Source of the DNA: a virus
Length of the DNA stretch: 64,000 bases
IMG/VR virus record: IMGVR_UViG_3300048818_000230
Span: 1-64,000 of that record
Direction: 5' to 3' (one strand)
This document shows, piece after piece, positions 5,419 through 55,905 of this stretch. Under the pieces are notes generated by a model, which had not been told where the DNA came from, did no database searches, and saw only the letters and a program-made list of their open reading frames with translations. The translations under genes were made by a program, and so were the position numbers. The stretch's first letter is position 1, and each line of letters begins with the position of its first letter.

Positions 5419-5419
5419 C

Positions 5420-22143: not shown

Positions 22144-22310
22144 GCTTCAAGGGAACATGGCGTATGCACAACGAGGGTCCGATGATCCACCAGCAGACGG
22201 GGCCAAACTCCGTCACGTGGCAGAACGTGCCGGATGAGTACATCGAGGATGACGGTAAACCCTTCGAGGATGGCGAAGAAGTCGAGTTGCTTGTTAGGCG
22301 CGTGCAGTGA
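22140..22310 (+). CDS. hypothetical protein
   Basis: ATGA overlap with the nuclease stop, 56 aa. Confidence 0.35.
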   Translation: MSFKGTWRMHNEGPMIHQQTGPNSVTWQNVPDEYIEDDGKPFEDGEEVELLVRRVQ

Positions 22311-22311
22311 G

Positions 22312-32100: not shown

Positions 32101-33684
32101 CCCAACAACCACAAGGTCGTCTCAGTCGAGTACGCCGGCGTCGCAGAGGTCTGGGATATCATCATGGATGCTCCGGCGCACTGCAAGAACTATGTCGCCG
32201 AGGGCGTCGTCGTCCACAACACTTCGAGCCGCCTGATCGCCACTCAGCTCGGCGAGGTCTACCAAGAGTCTCAGCAGTTGCTGCTTGACGGCTGGGATGC
32301 CTATGTATCCGAGCACATGTTCCCGCAGTTCATCGCGGCGAACTTCCCGGAGAAGATTGGCACTCCCTGTCGGCGTGTCTCGAGCGGTCTCGGCGCGATC
32401 GACGAGCAGCTTCGCCAAACCGTGCTGACGTTGATCGGTCAGGTTCGAGGCAACGTGCTGCCTGTCGATATGCGCACGTTGCTGGCGCAGAGCGGAATCC
32501 CGCTGCTCAACGAGGCGCAGATGCGCCAGGAAATGAAGAACATCGCTGAGCTTTCGGCCGCCACAGGACCACCCGTTACTCCTCCTTCTGGGCAGGGACT
32601 CCAGGGTTACAACGCCGGTGTCGAACGCGTTGGCGTCGTGCGCACGCCGATGGGCGAGTCCCGTTATGAGACTCGTTACTTCCAACCGCCGCAGAGGATC
32701 CTTCTGGCCGAGTCCGATGGCTTCATGAATGAGCTGCCAGACACTCCCCACTACCGCGATGCCGGAGTACGCTCGGCGATCGTGCGGCTACGGAGGCTTT
32801 TCGTCGAGCGCTACAGCGATCAGTACGCCTCGTTCGCGAAGTTCTTGGAGGCTCAGCCAACCCTTCATCTCGCTGACGCTACGCAGCCGCAGGGCGTCTC
32901 TCAGGGCAACGCCAAGACAGCAGCAGCCGCGATCATCGCTGCGTGGGCTGCTGCGAATGCTCCTGGTGTCGTCGGCTCTCCGATCGAGGCGATCGGGACC
33001 GCAGGATCGACGGCGGCGAAGATGTCAGACCTCATCGGCAAGATCGGGCTCGCTGGTGGTGTCGGCGCACTGAAGGGAGCTCGACTCGACGCTGAGGACT
33101 TCGGCGCCGGCGTCTTGAAGCCGTGGGTGCAGCAGCGAGTCGGTAGCTCGCTCTCTTCGATCGACGATACCGTGCGTTCAGAAGCACAGAACTGGCTCGA
33201 GGATCAGCTCCAGCAGAGCGTGGATCCGCGCGCGGTAGCTGCTGCAGCCAAAGAGCACTTCGCTGATTTTCCGGCTACCCATGCTGATCGTGTGGCTCGT
33301 ACGGAAGTCCGCGATGCCTACAATCGCGGCACGCTCGAGGCTCTTCATCTCGCCGGCGTCGAACAGGTCCAGGCTCACGATGCTTCCGATGGCTCGAACG
33401 AGTTGACCGACGCTGAATGTCTGGCCAGAGACGGCAAGATCATGGGCGTGCAAGACGCGATGAGCGCTGATGAACACCCGAATGGGACGCTGTGGTTCAG
33501 CCCGCTCTCGACTGATCATCTGCGCGTCGAGCGCGTCGACGAGCTGCCGCTGCACCTCGACCAGAACGGTGCTCAGGTTGCCTACGACTCGCGCGAAGAG
33601 ATCCTCTACCTCCTGAGCGACGTCGACGCTGAGCATGAACGCATGTATCTGCTCATGCTGGGCGACCAGATCAGCTATCGCTGA
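29152..33684 (+). CDS. portal protein (Mu gp29/DUF935-like) fused to a MuF-like head morphogenesis domain, interrupted by two inteins
   Basis: Follows TerL. Extein is 885 aa after removing the inteins. C-terminal HADRVARTEVRDAYNRG...ECLARDGKIM...HPNG resembles the Phage_Mu_F domain. Confidence 0.75.
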   Translation: MATISVGDLASLDPVLTQATEGPSPTQEKVIEATNAVGIKTRVAEAAAAGPTTRQRTQSEILDLELVRWRRNDPFSVRHIPFDQLREMTTDLMLGFGWFFTVAPLCRADWLIECPDAQLAAAVDAAFRPISTATYLNFSNVLWYGHQPLVKRFKLAKLGGYYRDPQAADPSKDIPIWTSSADALLWKTPMAVNPSHCLPMWDDDGDMIGFKFSTLPIPNFDLISAASAYGYMVISGSVIDDDYALWPTNEAELNFGSIYGSPRTKRAYRYWWCNPPETPILMSDYTLRPLGSIEEGDEIIGWEPKMGRRASGLYAPRVCMTKSIVTAVSKRAKQKMVKVTFESGHVIRCTPNHVWNLHPTAQNNVRPGRDSEWGVVEVGREISRVIDLHAGERPFIYEALDEEQQIAANWLGGLYDGEGSGAFIGQSESHNGPVRERMKESLDLLGFQYTCNPDSFWIKGGREELMRFARLTRPTRVYAMDRLIIDNNSASGGGFRFRRPDKIVSIEPDGEDVAIGLTTTTGNYIAWGLASKNSYWYRWALADRAFENHVDPAKIVYYPTDFEEFLDSEDNPTNQITLAREKAIRLGEATRSGATIALPADFIEGPDGKPTSARKWEITPYASGQQHFSDLDQTFAHLDTLKLRAWLIPEQAFIEGRGACLLKTTLILAPRDHDLYPDGIPMEELKDGQLVWSYNEHEARFQLWPIKEVGPTKTDDVFKLTLDNGQTITGTADHPFMRRDGRWTTLALLKPGDSLMPLYEKIDHEKQYNGKPIKEGDSEPWIAVGPGKIYTPEFRAVGDHFGWTRQGQGFGIHHKDERHANSSIENLVFLTNGAHTAEHFKNPEFAARHSELGSAAMAEFQAGNTPVENFEFASARSQKGWDNGRTKQRWKDKACATCGTMFTPNSARQKYCADHSAKIQKNEATPYQGRIKTPRPYKLKDCIDCGNAFYPTSGVQKRCEECQVAYKKNFSRDRRLAEISDNAPNNHKVVSVEYAGVAEVWDIIMDAPAHCKNYVAEGVVVHNTSSRLIATQLGEVYQESQQLLLDGWDAYVSEHMFPQFIAANFPEKIGTPCRRVSSGLGAIDEQLRQTVLTLIGQVRGNVLPVDMRTLLAQSGIPLLNEAQMRQEMKNIAELSAATGPPVTPPSGQGLQGYNAGVERVGVVRTPMGESRYETRYFQPPQRILLAESDGFMNELPDTPHYRDAGVRSAIVRLRRLFVERYSDQYASFAKFLEAQPTLHLADATQPQGVSQGNAKTAAAAIIAAWAAANAPGVVGSPIEAIGTAGSTAAKMSDLIGKIGLAGGVGALKGARLDAEDFGAGVLKPWVQQRVGSSLSSIDDTVRSEAQNWLEDQLQQSVDPRAVAAAAKEHFADFPATHADRVARTEVRDAYNRGTLEALHLAGVEQVQAHDASDGSNELTDAECLARDGKIMGVQDAMSADEHPNGTLWFSPLSTDHLRVERVDELPLHLDQNGAQVAYDSREEILYLLSDVDAEHERMYLLMLGDQISYR
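29968..30750 (+). mobile_element. intein 1 in portal (261 aa), single LAGLIDADG-like motif, penultimate Lys
   Basis: CNPPETPILMSDYT (block A), RCTPNHVW (block B), WLGGLYDGEGS, DVAIGLTTTTGNYIAWGLASKN then +1 Ser. Confidence 0.7.
31129..32220 (+). mobile_element. intein 2 in portal (364 aa) carrying an HNH endonuclease and Cys4 zinc-ribbon repeats
   Basis: CLLKTTLILA, GTADHPFM (block B), GIHHKDERHANSSIENLVFLTNGAHTAEH (HNH), CATCG...CADH and CIDCG...CEEC, EGVVVHN then +1 Thr. Confidence 0.8.
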
Positions 33685-34609: not shown

Positions 34610-35020
34610 ATGATTCCGAAGCTCTCAGCGCCTCTTTCAAAAGCGATCCGCACGAGCGAGGGAATCGCTGTGTGGGCGATCAACATCGCTCTGGGTATCG
34701 CTGCTGCGATCCCTAGCACGCATCTCACGGTCAAGGAAGCAGGGATCCTCGCGACGATCACCACGGGGCTGCACGTCGCCTCGCGGACCGCGCTCAAGGT
34801 CACTGCGGTGGCCAAGGCTGCCGGACTTCCGCCAATCGCCTTCGCGCCGTCGGCTGCTCTCGCGGCTGGCGTGGCTGACGCTCCTGCGCTGGTGACCTAC
34901 GCGGCAGAAGATGCTGCTGCGGCTCCTTCAGTCGATCAGGCGATAGAGCAGGCCCAGACAGTCGTCACGGATGTCCAGGAGATCGCGTCGCCGCCTCCAG
35001 TGCCTACTCCGGTTCCATGA
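34610..35020 (+). CDS. membrane protein, holin candidate
   Basis: AGGAGAA RBS. TM helices IAVWAINIALGIAAAI and GILATITTGL. ATGA-coupled to the lysozyme gene. Confidence 0.45.
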   Translation: MIPKLSAPLSKAIRTSEGIAVWAINIALGIAAAIPSTHLTVKEAGILATITTGLHVASRTALKVTAVAKAAGLPPIAFAPSAALAAGVADAPALVTYAAEDAAAAPSVDQAIEQAQTVVTDVQEIASPPPVPTPVP

Positions 35021-35727
35021 ACATCAGCGCAGCAGGGCTGAAGCTCATCGAGTGGTTCGAGTGGGGCAACCAGTTCAACGGCGCTCCCTACCAAGACGCT
35101 GTCGGCGTGTGGACGATCGGCTATGGCCACACGCACGACGTCGGTCCGAGCACTCCGCCGATCACCCAGCAGCAAGCTGTTGTGCTGCTTCAGCAGGATG
35201 TCGATGATGAGTATGGAGCAGCCGTCAACGATCTCAGGCTGCCGCTCAACCAGAACCAATTCGATGCGACGACGAGCTTCGTCTACAACCTCGGCCCTGG
35301 TGTGCTCGAGACCTCGAGCACGTTCGGCTCGTATCTGCGCGTGCGGGACTGGGTAGCCGCTGCGAACTCGATGATGGGCTATGTCTACGCTGACGGTCGT
35401 GTTCTTCCTGGGCTCGTCACACGTCGACAGATGGAGCGTGCTCTGTTCTTGGCGCCTGTCGCGAAGCCACCGGAACCGCTCAACGTCCTGACCCACAACG
35501 AGCGTCGTCTTGTCGCTGCCTATACGCAGGCGGTCAAGCATCCGCATCTGCATGCGCATGAGCTGAAAGGGCTACGCGCTGCGCTGGTCGAGTCTCGCCA
35601 AGCTGTGTGGCTCGCCGCCGTCAAGGGACTGACTGCTGATGGGAAGCACCTGCAGCCAGGCTGGGATATCGAGAACCGCAATCAGCGCTATCGGATCCTC
35701 AGCGCTCTGATCCCAGCAACGGCATGA
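35017..35727 (+). CDS. endolysin, GH24 (T4-type) lysozyme domain
   Basis: GLKLIEWFEW...YQDAVGVWTIGYGHT gives the Glu/Asp/Thr catalytic layout of T4 lysozyme; FDATTSFVYNLG. Confidence 0.8.
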   Translation: MNISAAGLKLIEWFEWGNQFNGAPYQDAVGVWTIGYGHTHDVGPSTPPITQQQAVVLLQQDVDDEYGAAVNDLRLPLNQNQFDATTSFVYNLGPGVLETSSTFGSYLRVRDWVAAANSMMGYVYADGRVLPGLVTRRQMERALFLAPVAKPPEPLNVLTHNERRLVAAYTQAVKHPHLHAHELKGLRAALVESRQAVWLAAVKGLTADGKHLQPGWDIENRNQRYRILSALIPATA

Positions 35728-45421: not shown

Positions 45422-45952
45422 TCATGCCGAGGATCCTACGTGGATTGGCATATCGGCTAGGCGTTCAGTGCGGCGCGCGTAGTGGTAGAGGTCTCGATGT
45501 TTATCGCTGCAGTAGCGTCGGTTGCGGTAGCCCTCGATGATCAACGCACCGCAGTAACGACACAAGACTTCGAGCCCAGCAGGTCTCGCGCCTAGGCGCG
45601 TCGGAGCCTCATGGATGGCTTCGATGATCGACACAGGAACATCGTAGTAGGCCGCGAGATCGTCTGTGGATGATGGCGATGCTCTACGGATTGCTGGCCT
45701 GAGATTGTGTCGGCGGTTATCTAGTTTGTCGCGATTGACGTGATCGACCTCACGGGTGTCTGCCGCATCAAGTCTCAAGACTGCATGATGGAGGTATACA
45801 TTCCGGTTGTTTTCTGCCGTTGGTGTGCTGCGCTGTACGTAGCCACCGCTATGTTGACGCCAGCGGAACAACGCGAGATTCGCGTCCTCGTCATCGATCA
45901 CCGCGTAGGCTCTGATCGAACCATCCTGTTTTCTCAAAGGTAGGTAGATCAC
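45422..45952 (-). CDS. HNH endonuclease with C-terminal zinc-ribbon-like tail
   Basis: EVDHVNRDKLDNRRHNLR; CRYCGALIIEGYRNRRYCSDKH. Paralog of 7384..7812. Confidence 0.75.
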   Translation of the reverse strand: MIYLPLRKQDGSIRAYAVIDDEDANLALFRWRQHSGGYVQRSTPTAENNRNVYLHHAVLRLDAADTREVDHVNRDKLDNRRHNLRPAIRRASPSSTDDLAAYYDVPVSIIEAIHEAPTRLGARPAGLEVLCRYCGALIIEGYRNRRYCSDKHRDLYHYARRTERLADMPIHVGSSA

Positions 45953-47229
45953 GGCTCGACTTCTGCCTCACTGCCGAGCTGAGCTAGCAGGTCTCGCTCG
46001 CGCTGGGTAAGGTGTTTGAAGCGTTCCTCGTCCGGTAGCATGATTGGTTCGCTCATCGGATTGACTTCTCTGTCGATGAGAGCTCCGAGTTGTTCAGCTG
46101 CCTGGGTATGCGGCTTGTGGTGCACATAAATCATAGTTGTTGACACAGAAGCGTGTCCCGCATAAGCCATGACATCGCTTAGCGGCCAGATTTGAACCCA
46201 CATACAAATTGCCGTGTGGCGCAAATCGTGGAAGCGTAGCCGACGTAGCCCTGCTCTCTCGGCTGCACCGAGGTAGCGTTTGTAGAGTGCTGAGCCGTCG
46301 ATCACGCCGCCTACAGGATTGCAGAAGACGAGCCAGTCTACCTCCGTGAAATACTCTCGACGCGAAAGGTTCTCGAGCGCCTGGGCAGCTTGAGGAACGA
46401 GCGGAACGGATCTCCCTCGGCCAGACTTTGTACGCCCGAAGCTACCCTCGTCCGTGTAGCCGCCGCGCACGAAGATCGTCGACTTGACGAAGTCGATGTC
46501 GCGCCAGCGCAAAGCACGGAGCTCAGAGCGCCGCAGGCCGGCCAGAGCAGCCACGAGATAGATCGCGGCGTCCTGCTCATCGGCAGCAGCGCGCGCAAGA
46601 GCCAAGACCTCAGCCGGCGAGTAGACATCGATGTGCGATTGAGGCTTGATCCTCGAGTGCTCGAACTCCACAGTCGGATCCGGCCCGGAATATCCTCGCG
46701 CCTTCTTCGCGAACTTGTAGATGCCGACGAGCATCGTCCGGGTCTGGTTCAGCGTCGATGCAGAGAGCTGTGTCGGCTGATCGCCGGGTTTGGCGCCACG
46801 GCGGTAGGCAGGACGGCTGATCATCTCGTTGCGGATCGCCATGATGTCTCTCGGGCCGATCGTACTCAACTGGCGCTCGCCGAGAGCGGGTAGAAGATCG
46901 CGCTCGATGATCGAGGAGTACCTGCGCAGAGTAGAAGCACGAAGACCTTGGTGGCGCTCGAGATAGCCAAGATATTCAGCAGCAGCGACAGAGAAGCTCG
47001 GGTTGGAACCGCGCGAGATATTGGCATACTTGACAAGATTCTTCTCCAGCACTTCGCGAGCCATCGTCGCCGTGAAATATCCCTCCGGCGGCCTTCCGCT
47101 GCCCTTCCATGCCAGACCGATACGTCGCTTCAGATGACCATCGCCGGTTCTTATCTGAAAATACCAAGTCGTCCTCTCCGGCGATCTGAGGAAAATGCTG
47201 CCTGCTAATTGACCTGAACGCTTAGCCAT
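45949..47229 (-). CDS. int: tyrosine recombinase / phage integrase
   Basis: LRRSELRALRWRDID (Arg), RFHDLRHTAI (HxxR), GHASVSTTMIYVH (Tyr). Start taken at MAKRSGQ. Confidence 0.85.
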   Translation of the reverse strand: MAKRSGQLAGSIFLRSPERTTWYFQIRTGDGHLKRRIGLAWKGSGRPPEGYFTATMAREVLEKNLVKYANISRGSNPSFSVAAAEYLGYLERHQGLRASTLRRYSSIIERDLLPALGERQLSTIGPRDIMAIRNEMISRPAYRRGAKPGDQPTQLSASTLNQTRTMLVGIYKFAKKARGYSGPDPTVEFEHSRIKPQSHIDVYSPAEVLALARAAADEQDAAIYLVAALAGLRRSELRALRWRDIDFVKSTIFVRGGYTDEGSFGRTKSGRGRSVPLVPQAAQALENLSRREYFTEVDWLVFCNPVGGVIDGSALYKRYLGAAERAGLRRLRFHDLRHTAICMWVQIWPLSDVMAYAGHASVSTTMIYVHHKPHTQAAEQLGALIDREVNPMSEPIMLPDEERFKHLTQRERDLLAQLGSEAEVEP

Positions 47230-47437
47230 GTGCTTCCCGAGCTTCAGATACAAACGCAACAATCGCGTCCCATTCTTCGCGGATGTAACTGAGTCGTTCT
47301 TCGCCCCCAGCATTCCAGATTAGTTGCAATGTTACGCCGCCGTCGTCGTGTGCGTAAACGGCCAAATCGCCATTATGTACGCCATCTCTCCAGCGTCGTA
47401 TAAGTGCATCACCGGAGCGCTCGATGATCTTAGACAT
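47222..47437 (-). CDS. hypothetical protein
   Basis: 71-aa ORF between the xis-like gene and int. Confidence 0.45.
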   Translation of the reverse strand: MSKIIERSGDALIRRWRDGVHNGDLAVYAHDDGGVTLQLIWNAGGEERLSYIREEWDAIVAFVSEAREAHG

Positions 47438-47800: not shown

Positions 47801-48000
47801 CTCTTCACCGGCCTTCCCGCAATTATCCCGACGCCGCCGATAAGCACCAACACACCAATCGAAGCATGTGCCAACAAACCAATACCGACGATAACAGCGA
47901 CAAGACCAACCATGAAGGCTACGCCGGCGATAGTGTCGCTACGAGATTCGCGCTTCGATGGCATCTCTCGGCCTCCATTGGTGACACTCATGAGCGCCAC
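47797..48000 (-). CDS. small membrane protein
   Basis: Two helices (IAGVAFMVGLVAVIVGIGLLA; VLVLIGGVGIIA). Confidence 0.45.
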   Translation of the reverse strand: MALMSVTNGGREMPSKRESRSDTIAGVAFMVGLVAVIVGIGLLAHASIGVLVLIGGVGIIAGRPVKR

Positions 48001-49046
48001 CGATCACAGATAGTCTGAATTTCAGCCGAATTCACAAAAGCACCTTGGAAACGCACACACGGCGCACCACCCATAGAGAACAGACCGTCACCATTACCCA
48101 AAAGTGCCTCGGCACCATTCTTGTCAAGAGCTACCCTAGAGTCTGTCATCGAACTCACTCGAAAGCAGATCCGTGAAGGGATGTTAGCTTTCAGTAATCC
48201 AGTGAAGATTTGCACTCTAGGTGATTGTGTCGCTAATACAAGATGGATGCCGACAGCGCGAGATTTCTGAGCCAACCGCACGATCAGCGACTCACTCTCC
48301 TTGCGGCTGCTCATCATCAGATCGGCCAGCTCGTCGATTACGACGACGATGTACGGACAAGGTGCGTATCCGGCAGCCTCGAGTTTCGTGTTGAACTCGG
48401 GTAACGAGCGCGCGGAAAACTTCTGCATGACGTCGTAGCGCATCTCCATGAGCTTGACGGTAGAGCGCAGACGAGCAAGCGCCGAGTCGACATCAGTGGC
48501 GATTGGCGCGAGCAACTGACTGATGCCCTCATAAGGCGCCAGCTCGACTTGCTTGGGATCGATCAGCACGAGACCAAGCTCATCGGGACCAAAGCGGCTC
48601 AGAAACGAGCAGAGCATGGCGTTGATCGCGGCACTTTTCCCAGAGCCAGTTTCGCCCAGAATGCCTAGATGCGGCGATTCGGCGAGGTTGCAGAAGATCG
48701 GGTTGCCATCCATATCCGGACCGAGCGGGAAGCTCAGCGGTTCAATCGGTGGCGGCATCGCGGCAAGATGCTCGATCCTGCGGTCGTTGCGTGCAACCTC
48801 GACGCCGATTTCGCCGGCTTTCCCAGCTAGCGGTGCCAGGATCTTCACGCGCGCTCCCAGCGCGAATTCCAGATCGACGCCCATGCGGTTGTACTCGCGC
48901 ATTCGCATCGGGGTAGACGGTTTCAGCTCGAAACGGTCTGACTGCGGCCCTGCAACGGTGCGCAGGAGCTCGCAGGAGCCACCGAGAGCGTCAAGAGCGC
49001 CCAAGAGCACGTCTTCCCTCGATGGTTCCGCGAGAACGGCGCTCAT
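47988..49046 (-). CDS. FtsK/SpoIIIE-family DNA translocase ATPase
   Basis: Walker A LGILGETGSGKSAAINAM, Walker B YIVVVIDELADLMM, HLVLATQSP. Confidence 0.85.
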   Translation of the reverse strand: MSAVLAEPSREDVLLGALDALGGSCELLRTVAGPQSDRFELKPSTPMRMREYNRMGVDLEFALGARVKILAPLAGKAGEIGVEVARNDRRIEHLAAMPPPIEPLSFPLGPDMDGNPIFCNLAESPHLGILGETGSGKSAAINAMLCSFLSRFGPDELGLVLIDPKQVELAPYEGISQLLAPIATDVDSALARLRSTVKLMEMRYDVMQKFSARSLPEFNTKLEAAGYAPCPYIVVVIDELADLMMSSRKESESLIVRLAQKSRAVGIHLVLATQSPRVQIFTGLLKANIPSRICFRVSSMTDSRVALDKNGAEALLGNGDGLFSMGGAPCVRFQGAFVNSAEIQTICDRWRS

Positions 49047-49270
49047 GACGTCTCCGCATTGCGGTTGCGTATACGGAATTCGTAGGTGAAGTGCGGCATT
49101 CCGGCCTCATAGATGAACTTCCATCCCATCGTCTTGTAGATAGCTTGATCGGCGAGCGGGCCGGGAATGGGTAGCAGCGACAGACCGACGATAAAGCGCA
49201 GCGGCTTAGGGATGCGCTTGTCGCGAGCTACGATCTTCGCGGCTCTGATTGCGCGCTTGATCTTGCTCAT
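49043..49270 (-). CDS. hypothetical protein
   Basis: 75-aa ORF, ATGA-coupled. Confidence 0.4.
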   Translation of the reverse strand: MSKIKRAIRAAKIVARDKRIPKPLRFIVGLSLLPIPGPLADQAIYKTMGWKFIYEAGMPHFTYEFRIRNRNAETS

Positions 49271-49506
49271 GCCTCTCTCCTCTCTGCCGGTTCGTACGCG
49301 ACGATGCGAACGGACAATGGGTCGATTCTCTTGCCGTCGACCAAAATCCCAAAGCCGACGAGCGCGGCATCGAGTAGTGCTCTGTGCTCATCAGTCAGAC
49401 CGTTCACGCGGCCATTCTCGATCTCGCGCGCAAGATCCTCGTGGCCGTCATTGCGAAGACGCTCCACAAACTCTGTCACGCTTGGACGGGTAGGTTCTGT
49501 GCTCAT
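49267..49506 (-). CDS. hypothetical protein
   Basis: 79-aa ORF, ATGA-coupled. Confidence 0.4.
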   Translation of the reverse strand: MSTEPTRPSVTEFVERLRNDGHEDLAREIENGRVNGLTDEHRALLDAALVGFGILVDGKRIDPLSVRIVAYEPAERREA

Positions 49507-49829
49507 CGGTTTGTTGCTCGGATCTCGTTCAGCATTGCTCGCTTCTCGTCATCTAGGCGATCCCGGTCGATCTCGAAATACTCGGCCAGAATGCGGTCGA
49601 TTGTCCGGTACGTCGGGTGCCATTCGGTGATTCGGACGACTCCGTCAACGGCGATCGCTCCAAATGGCAGTAACTGCGTGGTCATCGTGAGCGGCGGTTG
49701 AGGCTGATGCAGGATCCTCTCGCGCGGCTTGATCCCGCAAGCGATCATGTCTGCTTGAGCATCTGCTCTCGTCAGCGGAGGCTTTTGCGGCGCTGCTAGG
49801 ACTTCAAGTTTTGGCGTGGCTCGATCCAT
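49503..49829 (-). CDS. hypothetical protein
   Basis: 108-aa ORF downstream of the promoter at 49897-49925. Confidence 0.4.
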   Translation of the reverse strand: MDRATPKLEVLAAPQKPPLTRADAQADMIACGIKPRERILHQPQPPLTMTTQLLPFGAIAVDGVVRITEWHPTYRTIDRILAEYFEIDRDRLDDEKRAMLNEIRATNR

Positions 49830-49896
49830 CGATTGATCGTCTCCATTCGTCTCGTGGGTAGAACGCGGCTAGTCGACCGCGCCAAATCTACTAGCT

Positions 49897-49925
49897 AGCT
49901 TACCGATGCTCGGTAGCTCCGTCAA
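49897..49925 (-). promoter_or_regulatory. promoter TTGACG-N17-TAAGCT followed by AGCTAGTAG
   Basis: Counted on the minus strand. Confidence 0.45.
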
Positions 49926-49958
49926 GTGCTGCGAAAATCCCTGCTATGCCGCGAAGGA

Positions 49959-50093
49959 TCAACCCATGATTCCACTTCTGTAGAGGTCTGCTCGGACGGC
50001 CATCGTCTCACGACGGACCAGGGCAAACTGTTGATCCGTGTTCAGCGGTCGCTTAGGCGGTATCGGCTTGGGTTGCTTCTTGGCTGGCTTCAT
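49959..50093 (-). CDS. 44-aa basic protein (below ORF-track cutoff)
   Basis: Manual translation MKPAKKQPKPIPPKRPLNTDQQFALVRRETMAVRADLYRSGIMG. ATGA overlap upstream. Confidence 0.3.
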   Translation of the reverse strand: MKPAKKQPKPIPPKRPLNTDQQFALVRRETMAVRADLYRSGIMG

Positions 50094-50353
50094 GCGCTTC
50101 TCCCCTCCGGATCACTCGGCAAAATTCCGCCAGGCGCGTTATAGCGTGCTATCAGCTCTTCGCAGAGGGCAGGGAACGCGCGATATAGCGCGTCTGCGTT
50201 ATACGTGTCCGCCTGCCGGAACGCTGCCATAATCAGGGCATAGAACGGCAGATCATCGGAAATCAGTTTGCGCGAGATTTTGTAGTCGTAAAGGCTCACT
50301 GCGTCGTCTCCTCGGCGATCGGCACGTACTTCAAACCCAAAGAGACGTACCAA
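50090..50353 (-). CDS. hypothetical protein
   Basis: 87-aa ORF. Confidence 0.4.
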   Translation of the reverse strand: MVRLFGFEVRADRRGDDAVSLYDYKISRKLISDDLPFYALIMAAFRQADTYNADALYRAFPALCEELIARYNAPGGILPSDPEGRSA

Positions 50354-50522
50354 TGACCGTTGCGGTGCGCTCGTCCAGCACGCCTATGGCGCGTATATAG
50401 CAACTATTTTTGCACGCCTTGGAAAATCTGTGGGCATTGATTGGCGACTCAAACGCCCAAATCTCCGGCTCGGTGTCGTCATTGTCCACAATTACTAGGT
50501 AGACGCTCATTGCTTCGCTCAT
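50331..50522 (-). CDS. hypothetical protein
   Basis: 63-aa ORF. Confidence 0.4.
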   Translation of the reverse strand: MSEAMSVYLVIVDNDDTEPEIWAFESPINAHRFSKACKNSCYIRAIGVLDERTATVIGTSLWV

Positions 50523-50716
50523 CTCTCAGCCTCCTTATCGTGTCGCGCGTAATCGACAAACTGCCGTCTGATCTTGTCCAGCGTCGAGCATTGCCAACCG
50601 GCCGCACAAGATCGAACGGCCATCAGCTCATCATCTGTCATCGTCGGCGCGATCTTGCACGTACATGTGAGACGTGCGTCTAGAATCGCTTGGATTGAGT
50701 CTGTGCGCGCGCTCAT
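50519..50716 (-). CDS. hypothetical Cys-rich protein
   Basis: Internal ATG 50716 overlaps the upstream stop. MSARTDSIQAILDARLTCTCK... Confidence 0.35.
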   Translation of the reverse strand: MSARTDSIQAILDARLTCTCKIAPTMTDDELMAVRSCAAGWQCSTLDKIRRQFVDYARHDKEAER

Positions 50717-50985
50717 GCATGTTTCGGGGTAGTAGGATCGTTCGCTAGCGCTGTGTCGACCATATCGGCGACGATTACGATTGTGTCGGCGTTCCATTCG
50801 TAGTAATCGTCACCCGTTGAATAATTCGGATGATCGGCTACTTGCTTAGCCGGGTAGATCTCCGGGTAGAGGTAGCGATGAATCTTACGCAGCGCCGCTA
50901 GCGCTTTCAATCCGCGCTCGATCTCTTTGTGCTCGGCGTTTGCAAAAGCATTGTCGCTGATCCTCTTACCATAATCGTCAGTCAT
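50713..50985 (-). CDS. hypothetical protein
   Basis: 90-aa ORF, ATGA-coupled. Confidence 0.4.
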   Translation of the reverse strand: MTDDYGKRISDNAFANAEHKEIERGLKALAALRKIHRYLYPEIYPAKQVADHPNYSTGDDYYEWNADTIVIVADMVDTALANDPTTPKHA

Positions 50986-51455
50986 CGTGTCTCCTCTCTC
51001 AGCTCCGCATTCGCTAGGACATATGCCAGCGCGTCCTCGAGACTTTCATGCGTGCAGTGGTAGTAGATTCCATCCTTGGCGGATCGCACGGAGATATGTG
51101 CTTGCACGCTCACGCCTAGTGGCCGCGGCTTATAGATCATGTCGCCATCGCTGCGCTCACAAATCAGCCGGTAGCGTTCCTCCGTCCGTTCCGTATTCTC
51201 GCTCGCGCATAGACCGATCTCGCTATTGCGGCCGATCCCGTCGACCTCATGCGTTTTCAGCCAAGCGCCGCCAGAGAGCCGGTCGGAATTGAAGCGGATC
51301 ACAACGGGTAGACCGTAGGCATCGCGCAGCATCTCTGCGGCGCGCTGTACGGTCGCGTCAAGCTCATCGCTACGGCCGCTATAGCCTCCTCCGACAATCG
51401 CGGGTAGCGTGCCGATGCTCACGACCAGGCCAGCGCTACGTTCGATCTCGCTCAT
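50982..51455 (-). CDS. hypothetical protein
   Basis: 157-aa ORF, ATGA-coupled. Confidence 0.45.
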   Translation of the reverse strand: MSEIERSAGLVVSIGTLPAIVGGGYSGRSDELDATVQRAAEMLRDAYGLPVVIRFNSDRLSGGAWLKTHEVDGIGRNSEIGLCASENTERTEERYRLICERSDGDMIYKPRPLGVSVQAHISVRSAKDGIYYHCTHESLEDALAYVLANAELREETR

Positions 51456-51568
51456 CGCCGCTTGCCCCCGTACTTTTCCGCGCGGGTAGCCTTGCGCTCG
51501 ATAGTCGTCGCTCGTGCATCGCGTGAGCGCTTAGGGTCGGAGGGTTGGTAGTCATTTGTCTTGCGCAT
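51452..51568 (-). CDS. 38-aa basic protein
   Basis: Internal ATG of ORF-track 51452..51745: MRKTNDYQPSDPKRSRDARATTIERKATRAEKYGGKRR. The upstream part is Arg-rich junk. Confidence 0.3.
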   Translation of the reverse strand: MRKTNDYQPSDPKRSRDARATTIERKATRAEKYGGKRR

Positions 51569-51656
51569 AGTCGTGCGCTCCTGTCTCGTCTCATTGCCGC
51601 TCGGTAGTGAGCGGGTGAGAGGATTCGACTCGCGCCAAATCCTCGCATCCGTTCCG

Positions 51657-51911
51657 CTACTTGCCAAATACTGTCTTGGGTACGGGGTCGCCAGTTTTCC
51701 AGCGCGACGTTCCGAACGCATAGAACACCGCGCGCGAGTTTGCATCCTGCGCCAAGCGCGTCCCGCGCTTGACGTTCGCTAGCGCTTCGCCGTGCGTGCT
51801 GTACGGACCGAGCAGGAAACCAGTGCGGCCAGCATCCCGCACGGTCACATAGAACAGGCGCGCTGTAGTTCCTGGAGGGATTGCGCGAGCTCGCTGGACT
51901 AGATCGCTCAT
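51657..51911 (-). CDS. hypothetical protein
   Basis: 84-aa ORF with normal composition. Confidence 0.45.
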   Translation of the reverse strand: MSDLVQRARAIPPGTTARLFYVTVRDAGRTGFLLGPYSTHGEALANVKRGTRLAQDANSRAVFYAFGTSRWKTGDPVPKTVFGK

Positions 51912-52237
51912 CGTGGCACCCCGAATGCTTGGCGCAGCTCGCTTTCGCGCTTAGCGTCGATCTTGCGCGCGCTGAGCAGTCGGCGGCTATGTCCGCCCCA
52001 TTGACGAACTGAGCCATGATCTAGGTCGCGGATGAATCCGTGGCCGAAGTCGGCGCCGTCGACAATCTCCGCCAGGGAAACGCAGCGGTGAGCATTCCAG
52101 CGCGTTACGGCGCCGAGAATCGTCCACTTGCCACTGTAGTTCCAGCCGCGCGGACCATCGGAACGCGCGACGACATCGCCGCTATCAGTCAACAGATAGC
52201 GCGTATGGTCTCGTGTCGTCAGCTCGATCATCGCCAC
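51908..52237 (-). CDS. hypothetical protein
   Basis: 109 aa from GTG 52237. Alternative ATG 52231 overlaps the stop of a 23-codon mini-ORF (52228..52299) that follows the conserved leader. Confidence 0.45.
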   Translation of the reverse strand: MAMIELTTRDHTRYLLTDSGDVVARSDGPRGWNYSGKWTILGAVTRWNAHRCVSLAEIVDGADFGHGFIRDLDHGSVRQWGGHSRRLLSARKIDAKRESELRQAFGVPR

Positions 52238-52323
52238 ACCGCGATGTAGTTCGGTCGCACGATTCGGACTTCCTTGGGTGGTTTTGCTTTTGTGCGCATC
52301 GTCTCGTCTCTCTGTTTGGACTT

Positions 52324-52384
52324 GGCATCGTCAGACGCGGGCAGTCAATCCCGCGCGACGCCGCATAAGCGGCGTTTCGCCTAT
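52324..52384 (-). ncRNA. type II hammerhead ribozyme candidate HH-1 (one extra U after A9)
   Basis: AGGC-GAA-ACGCCGC-UUAU-GCGGCGU-C(52357)-GCGCGGG-AUUGACUG-CCCGCGU-CUGACGA-U-GCC, read on the minus strand. Confidence 0.55.
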
Positions 52385-52554
52385 AGCTCGGTAACGTCTT
52401 CGCGCATATGGCGATTGCGGTAGTTCACGACGGCATCGGCAATCTTGCGATCTTCGAACGTGTCATAAACCACGCTATCGCGGACCACTTCATAGACCCG
52501 ATCGGTGCCAGATACGCGGGCGAATCGCTCCTGTACGTACCACTGGTCGGTCAT
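52381..52554 (-). CDS. 57-aa protein (below ORF-track cutoff)
   Basis: Manual translation MTDQWYVQERFARVSGTDRVYEVVRDSVVYDTFEDRKIADAVVNYRNRHMREDVTEL. Preceded by a 28-codon ORF (52551..52637) with ATGA overlaps. Confidence 0.35.
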   Translation of the reverse strand: MTDQWYVQERFARVSGTDRVYEVVRDSVVYDTFEDRKIADAVVNYRNRHMREDVTEL

Positions 52555-52633
52555 AGCTGCCCCTTTCTATGCTCAGCTTCGCCGAGCGCGTACAGGAGAC
52601 CGCTCAGCGCTTGCAGGATGCGTTTCCGCTTGC

Positions 52634-53014
52634 TCATACCGGGACGCACACTCCCTCATTGCCCCAGTCGTCATAGAGCGAGCTCCATTCGCCCGGCGCC
52701 GTGATCTTGACCGTGCATCCGCGCGGATCGCCCTGGAAGACGACGCCGAACGGGCCATCGTCGGTCGCGGGCAAATCCTGCACGAGCGAGCGAATGCGGG
52801 CCTCGATCTTCTCTTCGCGCGCATCAGCGCGATTCGACGCCGCTTCATCCCAGCTACCGTCATACGTCTGATAGCCGTTACACGCTTGCTCCTGGAGTCG
52901 ATGATGCGTTGTCGCGTGCCTGCAAATCAGCGAGCAAGTCTCGGTGATCGCCCGTGTGGTACCGATTGCCGGCGCTAGCTTGAACGCCAATTCACGACCT
53001 TTATTCGTCGCCAT
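52634..53014 (-). CDS. hypothetical protein
   Basis: 126-aa ORF with normal composition. Confidence 0.45.
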   Translation of the reverse strand: MATNKGRELAFKLAPAIGTTRAITETCSLICRHATTHHRLQEQACNGYQTYDGSWDEAASNRADAREEKIEARIRSLVQDLPATDDGPFGVVFQGDPRGCTVKITAPGEWSSLYDDWGNEGVCVPV

Positions 53015-53132
53015 AATCTCGTCTCTCTCTAGTTTGTGGAATCGGCCGGAAAGTCACTCCGGCAAGCCGCATGATCTCATCCGATGAGAAAGCCTCGCGC
53101 TCTAACGCATGCGGCGACAGTCTTAGGGTCGG

Positions 53133-53477
53133 TCAGTCGGTCGCCTCCGTGTCTGCGTTGTAGATATTGCGGCGCGTCGTGATTGGATCTCCGTCCGCGG
53201 TTGCTTCCATGAAACGGTCAATTCTGGCGTTCGCGTCGAATTGCCCGACTGTCACGAGAAACGCGCGCACAGTCGAAAGCTCCGCGACCGCCTGCTCTAG
53301 ATCGCGCGCGACGAGCTCAAGCGATGCGTTTAGGTCGTGCCCGTAGCCGTCGCGGATAGCGCCGTATTCGCGGATCTCGTCAATACGCATTCCGGCTACC
53401 TTCGCCGCGACTCCGGCCGTTCCCAGCCAATCGCGCACACTTCCACCGTTAGACATCTTGCGGTCTAGATCAGTCAT
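53133..53477 (-). CDS. hypothetical protein
   Basis: 114-aa ORF. Its ATG lies 12 nt after HH-2. Confidence 0.45.
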   Translation of the reverse strand: MTDLDRKMSNGGSVRDWLGTAGVAAKVAGMRIDEIREYGAIRDGYGHDLNASLELVARDLEQAVAELSTVRAFLVTVGQFDANARIDRFMEATADGDPITTRRNIYNADTEATD

Positions 53478-53489
53478 CTAATCGTCTCC

Positions 53490-53557
53490 CTGTTAGCTCA
53501 TCAGCGCGAGATAGTCTGTCTCGCGGACACTCGCTCTAGCGCGAGTGTTTCGCTCAG
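53490..53557 (-). ncRNA. type II hammerhead ribozyme candidate HH-2 (fully canonical core)
   Basis: CUGAGC-GAA-ACACUCGC-GCUAGA-GCGAGUGU-C(53526)-CGCGAGA-CAGACUA-UCUCGCG-CUGAUGA-GCU-AA-CAG, read on the minus strand. Confidence 0.7.
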
Positions 53558-53802
53558 TCGGTCGGTAGAAACGTGCTCGATATCGAGCAATCTTGAGTCG
53601 AAGTCGTCACGTGCGGTACGCCTAGTAGCTCGGTGTCAGTGCCGACATACGGGCCGCTCACGCGGAGCTGTATCGTCCAACCGCGCCGATACTCGATGAT
53701 TCGACCAGTTGGGAACCCGTGCGCTTGCGCGTGCTCGACTGCATCCGCGCGTGTAGCGAAGTAGCGGATGCCCTTATGTAGCTTGCTCGTCTGCTCAGTC
53801 AT
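53554..53802 (-). CDS. hypothetical protein
   Basis: Internal ATG (MTEQTSKLHKGIRYFATRADAVEHAQAHGF...) with an 8-nt overlap onto the upstream gene. Confidence 0.4.
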   Translation of the reverse strand: MTEQTSKLHKGIRYFATRADAVEHAQAHGFPTGRIIEYRRGWTIQLRVSGPYVGTDTELLGVPHVTTSTQDCSISSTFLPTD

Positions 53803-54028
53803 CGCTACTCGCAGTCTGTAGAAAGCCGAATGCGCCGCAGTAGACCGCAACGTGAGTCCACTTCGCGCCTGTCACCGTATAGACGTTGTAAGTCTCGGCC
53901 GGATCAGTCCGGCGCTGGAGCATGTAGCGCGTGCAAGTAGCGAGCGATTGATAGTTGCCCGCGACTGTGCCGAGCGAACCTAGTCGGTCGCGACCGTTTG
54001 CGTCTGTCGGTCGCGCTATATAGCGCAT
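53795..54028 (-). CDS. hypothetical protein
   Basis: Internal ATG (MRYIARPTDANGRD...), 2 nt after the upstream stop. Confidence 0.4.
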   Translation of the reverse strand: MRYIARPTDANGRDRLGSLGTVAGNYQSLATCTRYMLQRRTDPAETYNVYTVTGAKWTHVAVYCGAFGFLQTASSDD

Positions 54029-54030
54029 CG

Positions 54031-54219
54031 CTACAGCTCCTCTGCGTAGTTGTGGACGGGATAGCAATGCTGCGCGGAGAATGCGTCAACCCGCGCGATG
54101 AAGTCGTCGACAACGTCGTGAGAGCGCTCGATATACGGGCGCGCGCAAGGATGATCGTCTGTATCGACGGCCGGATAAGGAACGTATACCGGCCACTCGC
54201 TAGTCAATGTCTGTACCAT
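54031..54219 (-). CDS. hypothetical protein
   Basis: Start MVQTLTSEW follows the conserved leader CAGAGAGACGAGACG directly after HH-3. Confidence 0.4.
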   Translation of the reverse strand: MVQTLTSEWPVYVPYPAVDTDDHPCARPYIERSHDVVDDFIARVDAFSAQHCYPVHNYAEEL

Positions 54220-54242
54220 CGTCTCGTCTCTCTGTCTCGCTT

Positions 54243-54299
54243 GGCTCGTCAGTGCGGGAGTCACCCGCAGACGGCGCTACTGCGCGCCGTTTCGCCCTA
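54243..54299 (-). ncRNA. type II hammerhead ribozyme candidate HH-3
   Basis: GGGC-GAA-ACGGCGC-GCAGUA-GCGCCGU-C(54270)-UGCGGG-UGACU-CCCGCA-CUGACGA-GCC, read on the minus strand. Confidence 0.65.
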
Positions 54300-54560
54300 T
54301 GCGAAGATGGATTCGTCGTGAGTCAACGCCCAGACAATCTGCTCGTCAGTCGCGTCCATAGCGTTGAGCGCGCTAGCAGCACCAGGGACGCCGCACAACG
54401 TCGTCCAACGGCCGATGAATTCGTACATACCGGGACCAGTGACGATGATCGTCGGCTGCTCCTGATCGGCCAGATTCGAGCCGTGCGCGTTCGGCCGGCG
54501 CCGAACAATGAAACGGCCTCGCTTCGTCTGAACCTCGCCGGATGAATCACTCTCAGTCAT
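54297..54560 (-). CDS. hypothetical protein
   Basis: 87-aa ORF. Its stop codon lies inside HH-3 stem II. Confidence 0.45.
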   Translation of the reverse strand: MTESDSSGEVQTKRGRFIVRRRPNAHGSNLADQEQPTIIVTGPGMYEFIGRWTTLCGVPGAASALNAMDATDEQIVWALTHDESIFA

Positions 54561-54671
54561 CGTCTAGCCTCTCTGCCGCTAGTCAAGCGGCCCTGCTTAG
54601 TCTCTCGCGATCAGTGCTGCAAGGCCACGCACGCGCTACAGCGAGCGCCGTGCGGGCCGAAGATCAGTCGT

Positions 54672-54833
54672 TCAGCGCTCTGAGTCGAACCTTTGCGCGA
54701 GCGCGATAACTTCCGCGCGCATCGTCTCATTGTGGAAGCGCTCATCTAGTGTCTTGCGGAGCGCCCAAGCGATCAGACCGGCTTCGCGCTCAGAGACACC
54801 AGTGATCGGCGCCGGAATACTCTGCTCAGCCAT
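54672..54833 (-). CDS. 53-aa protein, first gene of the operon (below ORF-track cutoff)
   Basis: Manual translation MAEQSIPAPITGVSEREAGLIAWALRKTLDERFHNETMRAEVIALAQRFDSER. Leader GGGAGACGATGAGCG upstream. Confidence 0.35.
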   Translation of the reverse strand: MAEQSIPAPITGVSEREAGLIAWALRKTLDERFHNETMRAEVIALAQRFDSER

Positions 54834-54891
54834 CGCTCATCGTCTCCCTAGATCGTCTCTCGCGCTAGTCTCACGCGCGTCTGATAGATGG

Positions 54892-54919
54892 ATCATACAC
54901 ATCTACATAGCTACGTCAA
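54892..54919 (-). promoter_or_regulatory. promoter TTGACG-N16-TATGAT for the minus-strand small-gene operon
   Basis: Counted on the minus strand. An AT-rich tract (CTTTTATTAGAAG) lies just upstream. Confidence 0.45.
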
Positions 54920-55518
54920 GGCTACTGTGATCACTTCTAATAAAAGGCTTTCGCCAGAGGGAAAGCACACCGCAGACAGGCGCTCAGCCATTGCTACGTA
55001 CTGATGCGAGACCTACTGTCGACGGAGAGCGGGAGAATCGCTCAGACCGCGCCGAAAGACTCTCTCTCAACCTTCCGGCCCTCTCAGTCACTACCTAGAG
55101 CGTGTCTCGTGAGTGCTCTAGCTTGTTTCACCGGACATAAGTGCTTGCGCTAGCTAGCAGTCTCTCTGTCACCTTCGCGCACTGCCGGCCGCGCGTACAA
55201 AACCCTGGACGCCGGAGCTCGGTCACCGGAAAGTATGTGATCCGATGTCCAAGAGAGCCCCGCCAACACTGAACGCGAACGCGGATTGAGAATCCCCCGA
55301 CCCTCCCCAGGGGTCTGCCTCTTGGCCATGCCGGCGCGCGATTCGACCCCGGATGGTAGACAGCTTGAGAACTCGCCAACAGAGCATTCCAACTCGCTCA
55401 GCAGAGGTCGTGTCATCGCTCAGAAGCGCATTGCGATGAGGAAGAGCTGCCCGAGCAAGCACCTACGCCGGCTATCAGAGCAGTGCTCTACTGACGGTAG
55501 GAAGGGGTCTGAGAGGGT

Positions 55519-55558
55519 CTTCGGGCCGATCTGGGAGGATTTCGGCCGATTTAGGGCC
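55519..55558 (+). repeat. tandem TTCGG(G)CCGATnTnGGG repeat inside the 0.95-kb non-coding region
   Basis: ttcgggccgatctggg / ttcggccgatttaggg. GGGTCT recurs at 55311, 55505, 55515 and 55645; GAGGATTTCG recurs twice in the region (within 55531-55550 and near 55701). Confidence 0.45.
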
Positions 55559-55831
55559 TTTTCGACGAGGTGCGTTTCGACAAAGTCCCTGCATAGCGTG
55601 GGTTTTGACCCCCTCTGTGCTCGGATCCGGCTACCCCTCCCCTAGGGTCTTCTACCGGCTGAGTCCTCTTGCGCAGATTCCTCCGGCGGAATCTGAGATT
55701 TTCGAGGATTTCGCTACTCCCTCTATGTATGAGGAAGCTAAGTATTTAGCTCGATGCTATTGCTCAGATGAGCATCGCCACGAAGATCTGCCTAAAGTGC
55801 GCGATCACTCTGCGATGACTAGCTTCCGACC

Positions 55832-55860
55832 TTGCTGTCTGGAGAAGCTGCTGCTAAGCT
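55832..55860 (+). promoter_or_regulatory. promoter TTGCTG-N17-TAAGCT followed by GATCTAGTAGG
   Basis: Counted directly, upstream of the 55906 operon. Confidence 0.45.
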
Positions 55861-55905
55861 GATCTAGTAGGTAGGTTCTTGGCGGCTACTGGGGAAGGAG
55901 TTGTT

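Follow-up and report, generated by a model that had tools for sequence, protein, structure and literature searches.

Do two small genes on the minus strand of an uncultured viral genome enclose a self-cleaving RNA and, if so, what holds this RNA in its active shape? The question was raised by IMG/VR virus record IMGVR_UViG_3300048818_000230, of which we analysed positions 1 to 64,000 (hereafter the window), and for which a canonical type II hammerhead ribozyme had been proposed between the genes at 53554..53802 and 53133..53477. Read along the minus strand from 53557 to 53490, this candidate, which we refer to as HH-b, has the sequence CUGAGC-GAA-ACACUCGC-GCUAGA-GCGAGUGU-C-CGCGAGA-CAGACUA-UCUCGCG-CUGAUGA-GCU-AA-CAG, matching the original prediction base for base. 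The order of its elements, II5'-GAA-III-C17-I-CUGAUGA-II3', is that of the type II topology, in which loops close stems I and III while stem II is left open. The core, the stems, the bulged stem II and the position of C17 all hold in the sequence, the Rfam alignment, the fold and a descriptor search (Table 1). HH-b has the full invariant core, the A15.1-U16.1 and G10.1-C11.1 pairs, a GUC triplet and a non-G nucleotide at position 17, and in its stem II the 5' strand CUGAGC is matched by GCU and CAG, which are separated by an AA bulge, giving 3+3 bp. The proposed fit between the genes is also borne out: the motif begins inside the stop codon of the upstream ORF of 82 aa, the UGA of which (53556-53554) lies within the 5' strand of stem II, and it ends 12 nt before the ATG of the downstream gene. 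The Shine-Dalgarno-like GGGAGA of the latter gene (53490-53485) abuts HH-b, and its first G is the last G of CAG. The word canonical is slightly too strong, because HH-b is without the pseudoknot between loop I and the 3' tail that most type II members have.

Table 1 Features of the HH-b locus and its surroundings, in coordinates of the window
Feature	Position	Strand	Basis or remark
HH-b, candidate type II hammerhead ribozyme	53490..53557	(-)	Rfam alignment 53488-53555, fold, descriptor
HH-b stem II, 5' strand CUGAGC	53552..53557	(-)	C11.1 = 53552
HH-b core G12 A13 A14	53549..53551	(-)	Sequence, Rfam alignment
HH-b stem-loop III, 8 bp ACACUCGC/GCGAGUGU, loop GCUAGA	53527..53548	(-)	53548-53541 paired with 53534-53527; A15.1-U16.1 at core
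HH-b C17	53526	(-)	Sequence and Rfam alignment; predicted scissile bond 53526/53525
HH-b stem-loop I, 7 bp CGCGAGA/UCUCGCG, loop CAGACUA	53505..53525	(-)	53525-53519 paired with 53511-53505
HH-b core C3 U4 G5 A6 U7 G8 A9 (CUGAUGA)	53498..53504	(-)	Sequence, Rfam alignment
HH-b stem II, 3' strand	53490..53497	(-)	GCU 53497-53495, AA bulge 53494-53493, CAG 53492-53490
HH-a, type II hammerhead match	54239-54297	(-)	35.9 bits; C17 = 54270; begins in UAG stop of ORF 54297..54560
HH-c, type II hammerhead match	52315-52382	(-)	45.2 bits (above gathering score); C17 = 52357; begins in UAG stop of ORF 52381..52554
Upstream cistron, 82 aa, no known family	53554..53802	(-)	Stop inside HH-b
Downstream cistron, 114 aa, no known family	53133..53477	(-)	Start 12 nt after HH-b
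Sigma-70-like promoter match TTGACG-16-TATGAT, 10/12	54892..54919	(-)	Consensus match only
FtsK/SpoIIIE-like gene	47988-49046	(-)	Downstream end of same-strand array
Tyrosine integrase gene	45949-47313	(-)	Downstream end of same-strand array
Endolysin gene	35017-35727

The original prediction named a search with the Rfam Hammerhead_II covariance model (RF02276, clan CL00010) as a check, and the outcome is a significant full-length match that nevertheless lies 0.9 bit short of the curated gathering score of 37. Specifically, HH-b scores 36.1 bits over model positions 1-66 of 66, with all conserved core columns matching and stems I and III in register. The corresponding E-value is 1.2e-3 when both strands of the whole 64-kb window are searched against all 4227 families; it falls to 1.5e-4 when the search is confined to the 8-kb operon and to 4.8e-6 in a local search. 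The gathering threshold of 37 bits is an operational cut-off and no biological feature; because HH-b is under it, a default Rfam scan of the window does not list HH-b and has 52315-52382 (HH-c) as its sole hammerhead. A strict descriptor (GAA and CUGANGA, any nucleotide but G at position 17, at least 5 bp in each of stems I and III with stem III closed by A..U, and 2 bp of stem II) matched HH-b and one other site in the window, and gave 0 matches in 200 dinucleotide-preserving shuffles, both strands included. Over 75 nt, the minimum-energy fold and the centroid of HH-b are the exact three-way junction with the bulge in its stem II (-26.6 kcal/mol, z = -2.3). In a 181-nt context fold, hairpins III and I were retained and stem II was swapped for other pairings; such competition in a folding model is not unexpected for a short stem II and would not decide the matter. 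We are confident from this agreement that HH-b belongs to the type II hammerheads.

Together with HH-a and HH-c, HH-b makes up a set of three Hammerhead_II matches on one strand (-) within 2 kb, and a permissive Rfam scan of 47900-55900 gave no match beyond these three. All of them start inside the stop codon of the upstream ORF (UAG, UGA and UAG for HH-a, HH-b and HH-c, respectively) and end 10-25 nt short of the following start codon, in front of which lies a GAGACGA-type ribosome-binding site. The promoter-like site at 54919-54892 lies upstream of the first minus-strand gene of the operon, with all three hammerheads downstream of it, and no terminator-like site was found on the minus strand from there down to 49000, the lower limit of the scan. 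The same-strand array consists of ~20 small ORFs followed by the FtsK/SpoIIIE-like and tyrosine integrase genes; PHROGs and Pfam searches with the small ORFs that flank the ribozymes gave no matches. This region is GC-rich (59%), and its intergenic spacers hold many hairpins. In most operon spacers, indeed in nearly every one, a GC-rich hairpin with a GACU(A) loop lies ~15-35 nt before the next start; in three spacers this hairpin is stem-loop I of a hammerhead, and in the others it stands alone. The spacer 53135-53012 aligns to HH-c with a score of 77, compared with 44 +/- 5 for shuffles, and looks like a hammerhead relic without core.

The genome around this operon encodes, in addition to the endolysin, a DnaE-like polymerase, DnaB-like and other helicases, a primase and a RecA-like protein, several of which are interrupted by inteins, as well as a Holliday-junction resolvase and a DNA methyltransferase. 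Based on this gene content (replication, endolysin, resolvase and the array with the integrase), the genome is that of a temperate phage-like element. Positions 43133-63477 recur without change in a 94,971-bp ENA metagenome scaffold, and shorter contigs identical to the window region come from three other samples; the source samples are ENA ERZ28653421 (WOOD18-1), SRR35912848, SRR35911387 and JGI 3300050016. blastn and megablast searches with the locus and 24 kb of the window found no match among 50,697 GenBank phages, and the DnaE-like polymerase shares only ~31% identity with polymerases of Streptomyces phages. A scan of genome contigs with a stem-II-specific hammerhead pattern gave 0 matches, and a polymerase scan gave no confirmed relative.

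Relatives were reached through the flanking proteins. Homologs of the 114-aa ORF form 2 clusters, the 82-aa ORF matches itself only, and IMG/VR scans with both proteins found nothing. Through one homolog of a flanking protein we reached L007, a contig of 94,059 bp that comes from a different metagenome and is a mosaic relative of the window element; L007 carries four Hammerhead_II matches (29.9 to 37.4 bits) on the corresponding strand, one of them 80 nt past an ArdA gene. Across the phage group, the hammerhead paralogs thus range from 29.9 to 45.2 bits and fall on both sides of the gathering cut-off. The ortholog of HH-b, at L007 4570-4637, is 97.5% identical over 81 nt, compared with 76% for the upstream gene and 95% for the downstream gene. 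Its sole core change is CUGAUGA to CUGAAGA (U7 to A) at the freely variable N7, and the 13 invariant core positions are unaltered in the two RNAs; because its stems are identical to those of HH-b, the ortholog provides no covariation information. This pattern of conservation fits selection on the ribozyme, and because the downstream gene is also 95% identical it could alternatively reflect a recent recombination block. Identity steps up from 76% to 97.5% at 53562, and the ribozyme begins five nt further downstream, at 53557; L007 has an extra gene of 119 aa exactly between the 3' end of the ribozyme and the next gene. HH-a, in turn, forms a 91%-identical island between the two genomes, with no similarity detected in its upstream gene.

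More distant hammerheads were found by searching for stem II itself. A metagenome scan for an identical extended stem II gave one locus, L095, which has the same CUG/CAG extension, here with a UG bulge, and completely different stems I and III. Taken together, the paralogs and L095 have five or six different stem III/stem I sequences, all of which are perfectly paired; for this pair comparison stems were parsed by script, the MAFFT alignment of the eight local hammerheads being out of structural register. IMG/VR contigs contain 56 distinct type II hammerheads with a GAGC...GCU stem II, nearly all with a stem III of 6-13 bp and a stem I of 6-8 bp. In 44/54 of the IMG/VR hammerheads, compared with 105/1080 random positions, an open frame of 40 or more codons terminates between -12 and +6 nt of the ribozyme start, supporting that placement just after a stop codon is a general property of such elements. 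Another motif, CUCACAGA/CAUUCACC of L005/L006, had no Rfam match and was dropped as a lead: its IMG/VR pattern matches, at least 120, are without the hairpin, and by a rough estimate their number is explicable by chance.

In most type II hammerheads, loop I pairs with the tail 3' of stem II over at least 4 bp, forming a pseudoknot that is critical for speed at low Mg2+; in a model type II ribozyme its loss slowed the reaction more than 100-fold, and lengthening of stem II was also harmful. Across all three types, only ~40% of hammerheads are estimated to use a pseudoknot (PMC3088659). For HH-b, a search of 20 nt of 3' tail found no loop-I/tail pseudoknot, and inspection by eye found none in the upstream sequence. 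The best match of loop I to the tail amounts to 3 bp, located 15 nt downstream, and was equalled or exceeded by 933/1000 shuffled tails. Compared with the RF02276 consensus, the tail of HH-b, UAACAGGG, has no match to the AGCCaAAg pseudoknot strand, and HH-b has 3 extra nt in loop III and fewer nt in loop I. By contrast, HH-c and the L007 hammerheads L007-6011 and L007-6501 have a pseudoknot of 4-6 bp that uses the same GACU loop motif and starts 2 nt into the tail, the partners being (U)UGACU or CGACU in the loop and AGUC(AA) or AGUUG in the tail; in HH-c, the 4 bp are GACU:AGUC.

In HH-b, stem II instead runs on beyond the AA bulge. HH-a likewise combines the absence of a pseudoknot with a stem II that extends past an AA bulge: its GGC/GCC helix gives way to an internal loop, in which the 3' strand contributes AA, and then to UUCGC/GCGAG. 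In L007-4033, the ortholog of HH-a, the distal stem II helix is CUCUA/UAGAG, a compensatory change relative to UUCGC/GCGAG. Each 5' strand of these two helices lies within the end of its upstream gene, the two genes being unrelated, and the 3' strands have altered so that pairing is kept. We argue from this compensatory change that the bulged stem II extension is a selected structural feature. Several IMG/VR hammerheads have a comparable extension of stem II, e.g. CUGAC-CA-GAGC...GCU-U-GUCAG. HH-b probably does not align stems I and II by the usual loop-I/tail pseudoknot; it is more likely that its bulged stem II, opposite loop I, replaces the pseudoknot as the tertiary contact between the two stems. 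Type I and III hammerheads (e.g. those of Schistosoma and sTRSV; see PMC3088659) have loop/bulge contacts between stems I and II. HH-b would resemble these in using a contact other than a pseudoknot, between the loop of stem I and an irregularity in stem II a few bp from the core, but differs in that it is permuted and has an open stem II, so that a bulge within an open helix would have to serve as the partner. Because the pseudoknot is missing and stem II is long, as in the slowed model ribozyme, HH-b could be slow at physiological Mg2+.

The same features raise the alternative that HH-b is a catalytically weak or dead paralog in decay that has lost its pseudoknot and persists as two spacer hairpins. 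This would account for the absence of the 4-6 bp found in HH-c, L007-6011 and L007-6501 and for the score below the gathering threshold; it would agree with the strong impairment of the model type II ribozyme by pseudoknot loss and by lengthening of stem II (PMC3088659), and the relic-like spacer 53135-53012 suggests that decay does happen in this operon. However, a decaying copy is hard to reconcile with 13 invariant core positions that are intact in both orthologs, N7 being the sole change. In addition, the covariation of distal stem II between HH-a and L007-4033 points to the bulged extension as a selected alternative tertiary element, and the estimated use of pseudoknots by only ~40% of hammerheads of all types (PMC3088659) lessens the weight of its absence. 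We consider decay unlikely.

Two further explanations carry even less weight in our judgement. Intercistronic cassettes might act at the DNA level as homology patches for the exchange of gene modules, with RNA cleavage incidental, and the jump in identity by the ribozyme edge, the gene insertion in L007 exactly at the ribozyme 3' end and the HH-a island beside an upstream gene without detected similarity speak for such a role. We regard it as very improbable as a replacement for RNA function, with which it is compatible rather than a true alternative: it leaves unexplained that the core and the compensatory stems are kept across the paralogs and the 56 IMG/VR hammerheads, and the comparison on which it draws is of two genomes only. 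Least probable of all is a chance arrangement in which two GC-rich spacer hairpins (e.g. an RNase III site or an attenuator) happen to lie between GAAA and CUGAUGA. Hairpins are abundant between the genes of this GC-rich region, and the score of HH-b is under the Rfam threshold; yet chance would have to produce the window-wide E-value of HH-b as well as a descriptor match that none of the 200 shuffles gave, and to do so in company with two other matches on the same strand within 2 kb, four more in L007 and a core conserved in the L007 ortholog. For practical purposes, we judge that chance is excluded as an explanation of HH-b.

Our preferred reading is that HH-b is likely an active self-cleaving ribozyme, one of three in a polycistronic operon of a ~95 kb uncultured temperate phage-like element, and that this operon is likely an early or lysogeny-side operon. 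We hold less firmly that cleavage by HH-b processes the operon mRNA with a specific physiological consequence; to our knowledge, an effect on gene expression has been demonstrated for no phage hammerhead. mRNA processing has been suggested as a function of such ribozymes (review PMC6765202; PMC3088659).

In the mechanism that we propose for the active ribozyme, transcription of the operon would begin at a promoter near 54900 and proceed through ~20 small ORFs toward the FtsK-like and integrase genes. The emerging RNA would fold into the three-way junction, in which G12 and G8, with Mg2+, would catalyse the attack of the 2'-OH of C17 on the 53526/53525 phosphodiester. Hammerheads cleave 3' of position 17 and generate a 2',3'-cyclic phosphate and a 5'-OH, which in HH-b would be left on C53526 and C53525, respectively. 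The upstream fragment would keep its UGA stop and end in the 8-bp stem III hairpin with the 2',3'-cyclic phosphate, while the downstream fragment would carry its 5'-OH on the 7-bp stem I hairpin and keep the ribosome-binding site and AUG; the predicted energies of these product-end hairpins are -13.3 kcal/mol (stem III, upstream 3' end) and -9.2 kcal/mol (stem I, downstream 5' end). Cleavage by all three hammerheads would cut the transcript into four pieces, of which piece 1 would comprise the leader and 2 ORFs, piece 2 744 nt with 3 ORFs (54269-53526), piece 3 1169 nt with 3 ORFs (53525-52357) and piece 4 the rest, reaching the FtsK-like and integrase genes. Hairpins at both ends and the unusual end chemistry might then uncouple the stability and translation of gene blocks that share one promoter. 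Within this scheme, the course of transcription and the division into four pieces are based on sequence evidence, whereas folding and catalysis, the nature of the fragment ends and the uncoupling are inferred. Because the stop codon lies inside stem II, a terminating ribosome would be expected to unfold the ribozyme, and cleavage would take place before or between rounds of translation; the terminating ribosome and the folded ribozyme would be mutually exclusive, which makes a coupling of translation and cleavage testable.

How does this operon compare with known systems? Natural type II hammerheads were discovered by Perreault et al. in 2011, many of them near prophage integrase genes, and tandem arrangements were described in Agrobacterium tumefaciens (around ardA), Azorhizobium caulinodans and Clostridium scindens prophages; cleavage in vitro was shown for triple arrangements from three bacteria, and cleavage in E. 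coli as well for the one around ardA of A. tumefaciens (PMC3088659). The window likewise has three minus-strand matches (54297, 53555 and 52382) and an integrase gene (45949-47313), and shares with these tandem hammerheads the class and topology, the presence, on what would be one transcript, of several copies that flank genes or short blocks of unknown function, and the proximity to an integrase. The L007 hammerhead that follows an ArdA gene parallels the A. tumefaciens case, and the processing outlined above would correspond to the proposal that long phage transcripts are cut into gene-length or operon-length mRNAs (PMC3088659). Unlike the tandem hammerheads of that study, HH-b is without the loop-I/3'-tail pseudoknot, and an AA bulge interrupts the 6 bp of its stem II; unlike those for which cleavage was shown, it is a predicted ribozyme of an uncultured phage with an uncultured host; and, unlike those prophages, the phage of the window has no sequence relation to any deposited phage. 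A second comparison is provided by the type II hammerheads loc 1-3 of Desulfovibrio vulgaris, which lie near phage-like genes and were shown in a cyPhyRNA-seq study of 2021 to be active in vivo and in vitro (PMC8782182). As in our operon, these are type II hammerheads beside hypothetical or phage-like genes, with two of the loci close together; they are, however, chromosomal, in a cultivated host and with cleavage shown, whereas the source of HH-b is a metagenome sequence. We conclude that, as far as its sequence goes, the arrangement of HH-b has been known since 2011, with a match in class, topology, copy number, context and, through L007, association with ArdA, and that it departs from the known cases only in having a bulged stem II instead of a pseudoknot and in scoring slightly below the Rfam cut-off.

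HH-b is a well-supported example that is missed at default Rfam thresholds, and finding it leaves current understanding unchanged. Two of the three hammerheads in the window and three of the four in L007 are below the Rfam gathering score and, because of such sub-threshold scores, phage hammerheads with an extended stem II and no pseudoknot are probably under-counted. With pseudoknot and non-pseudoknot variants, an apparent relic and a predicted active copy in one operon, the locus offers a compact system for the role of intercistronic ribozymes.

More tentatively, and in our view with low probability, the hammerheads of this phage group might belong to a wider class of modular cassettes between cistrons, in which the GACU-loop hairpin would be the functional unit, as a stabiliser of 5' ends or a site for a phage factor, and in which a type II hammerhead without pseudoknot but with an AA bulge in stem II would be a distinct solution to the tertiary contact. 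If this were so, the job of the ribozyme would be to make the hairpin 5'-terminal. We also considered the GACU-loop hairpins as promoters, with the TTGACT-like loop as a -35 box, and rejected this idea because inspection by eye found no suitably spaced -10 box after them. The cassettes also fall at mosaic breakpoints between related phages.

The GACU(A) loop motif common to stem-loop I of all three type II hammerheads on the minus strand of the window (HH-a, HH-b, and HH-c; 3/3) recurs in standalone GC-rich hairpins, both in the operon of small ORFs and in L007, a 94,059-bp metagenome contig that is a mosaic relative of the window element. These hairpins have stems of 5–8 bp, with a single longer one in L007, and lie in intergenic spacers of the operon with the next start codon ~15–35 nt 3' of them. 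Spacers make up only ~16% of the operon length, yet 10 of its 12 GACU(A) hairpins are intergenic. The standalone hairpins may be what is left of former hammerheads, or a 5'-UTR element in their own right.

Coordinates of hairpins, spacers, start-codon strings, and intein-related ORFs
Feature	Sequence	Positions	Strand	Context
GACU(A)-loop hairpin	window	54877-54861	minus	operon spacer
GACU(A)-loop hairpin	window	54591-54575	minus	operon spacer
GACU(A)-loop hairpin	window	53063-53045	minus	operon spacer
GACU(A)-loop hairpin	window	51578-51563	minus	operon spacer
GACU(A)-loop hairpin	window	49883-49862	minus	operon spacer
GACU(A)-loop hairpin, 9 bp	L007	5339-5362
GACU(A)-loop hairpin	L007	8849-8868
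~70-nt spacer	L005	156-225		identical in L006
~70-nt spacer	L005	496-567		identical in L006
GAGACGA(N0-6)AUG	window	54230-54217		operon start codon
GAGACGA(N0-6)AUG	window	53487-53475		operon start codon
GAGACGA(N0-6)AUG	window	53025-53012		operon start codon
GAGACGA(N0-6)AUG	window	52310-52297		operon start codon
GAGACGA(N0-6)AUG	L095	2056-2067		ahead of gene after hammerhead
Intein or LAGLIDADG ORF	window	18408-20564	plus
Intein or LAGLIDADG ORF	window	22234-25191	plus
Intein or LAGLIDADG ORF	window	29152-33684	plus

Among the hammerheads, HH-c (52315-52382, minus strand) has the top score; it carries an additional U separating A9 from G10.1 (CUGACGAU-GC), as does its relative in L007, and its minimum-energy fold is a competing structure rather than the hammerhead. 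When HH-c was aligned with the 124-nt spacer at 53135-53012 (minus), the score was 77 (shuffles, 44 ± 5). This spacer has no GAAA, GUC triplet, CUGA, or pseudoknot strand, its stem III loop contains an insertion of ~40 nt, and it is 92% conserved in L007; the spacer thus resembles the remains of an inactivated hammerhead. The spacer at 52636-52552 (minus), which contains GAAAC, CUGAGCA (CUGANGA-like, with C at position 8), and hairpins, gave no match in a covariance-model scan at E<=10 and is possibly another degenerate hammerhead.

Mosaic breakpoints between the window element and L007 fall at hammerheads. Specifically, identity is 76% up to the 5' edge of HH-b and rises there abruptly to 97.5% (window 53562-53482 vs L007 4563-4642), and L007 has an additional 119-aa gene between HH-b and the following ORF. 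HH-a is an island of 91% identity (window 54296-54219 vs L007 4034-4112), and similarity between window and L007 was not detectable in the gene adjoining it.

The short soil-metagenome contigs L005 and L006 encode a homolog (75% identical) of ORF 53133..53477, the cistron downstream of HH-b, and a hammerhead is absent from both ~70-nt spacers. Instead, the two L005 spacers have in common a hairpin whose stem covaries and whose loop reads CUCACAGAW, followed 3' by CAUUCACC(C)AACCCAAC and then a ribosome-binding site. This motif had no match in Rfam, and the matches listed in an IMG/VR pattern scan lacked the hairpin; their number is, by our estimate, that expected from chance alone.

In the window, a 6-bp hairpin (UUAGAU-GACUG-AUCUAG; 53481-53465, minus) surrounds the AUG of ORF 53133..53477 and might modulate initiation or be a chance occurrence. 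The string GAGACGA(N0-6)AUG recurs at operon start codons in place of the classical GGAGG. Because it is shared with L095, a metagenome contig whose type II hammerhead was found via the same extended stem II as in HH-b, the string suggests that L095 belongs to a phage group related to the window element.

Of the three large plus-strand ORFs with intein or LAGLIDADG signatures, one encodes a RecA-like protein that includes a LAGLIDADG domain, and the other two, of 985 and 1510 aa, have Intein_splicing/Hint matches; the replication region is unusually rich in predicted inteins. In L007, a gene for the anti-restriction protein ArdA (5330-5929) is followed after 80 nt by a type II hammerhead (6011-6080), echoing the ardA association reported for Agrobacterium and Legionella hammerheads (PMC3088659).
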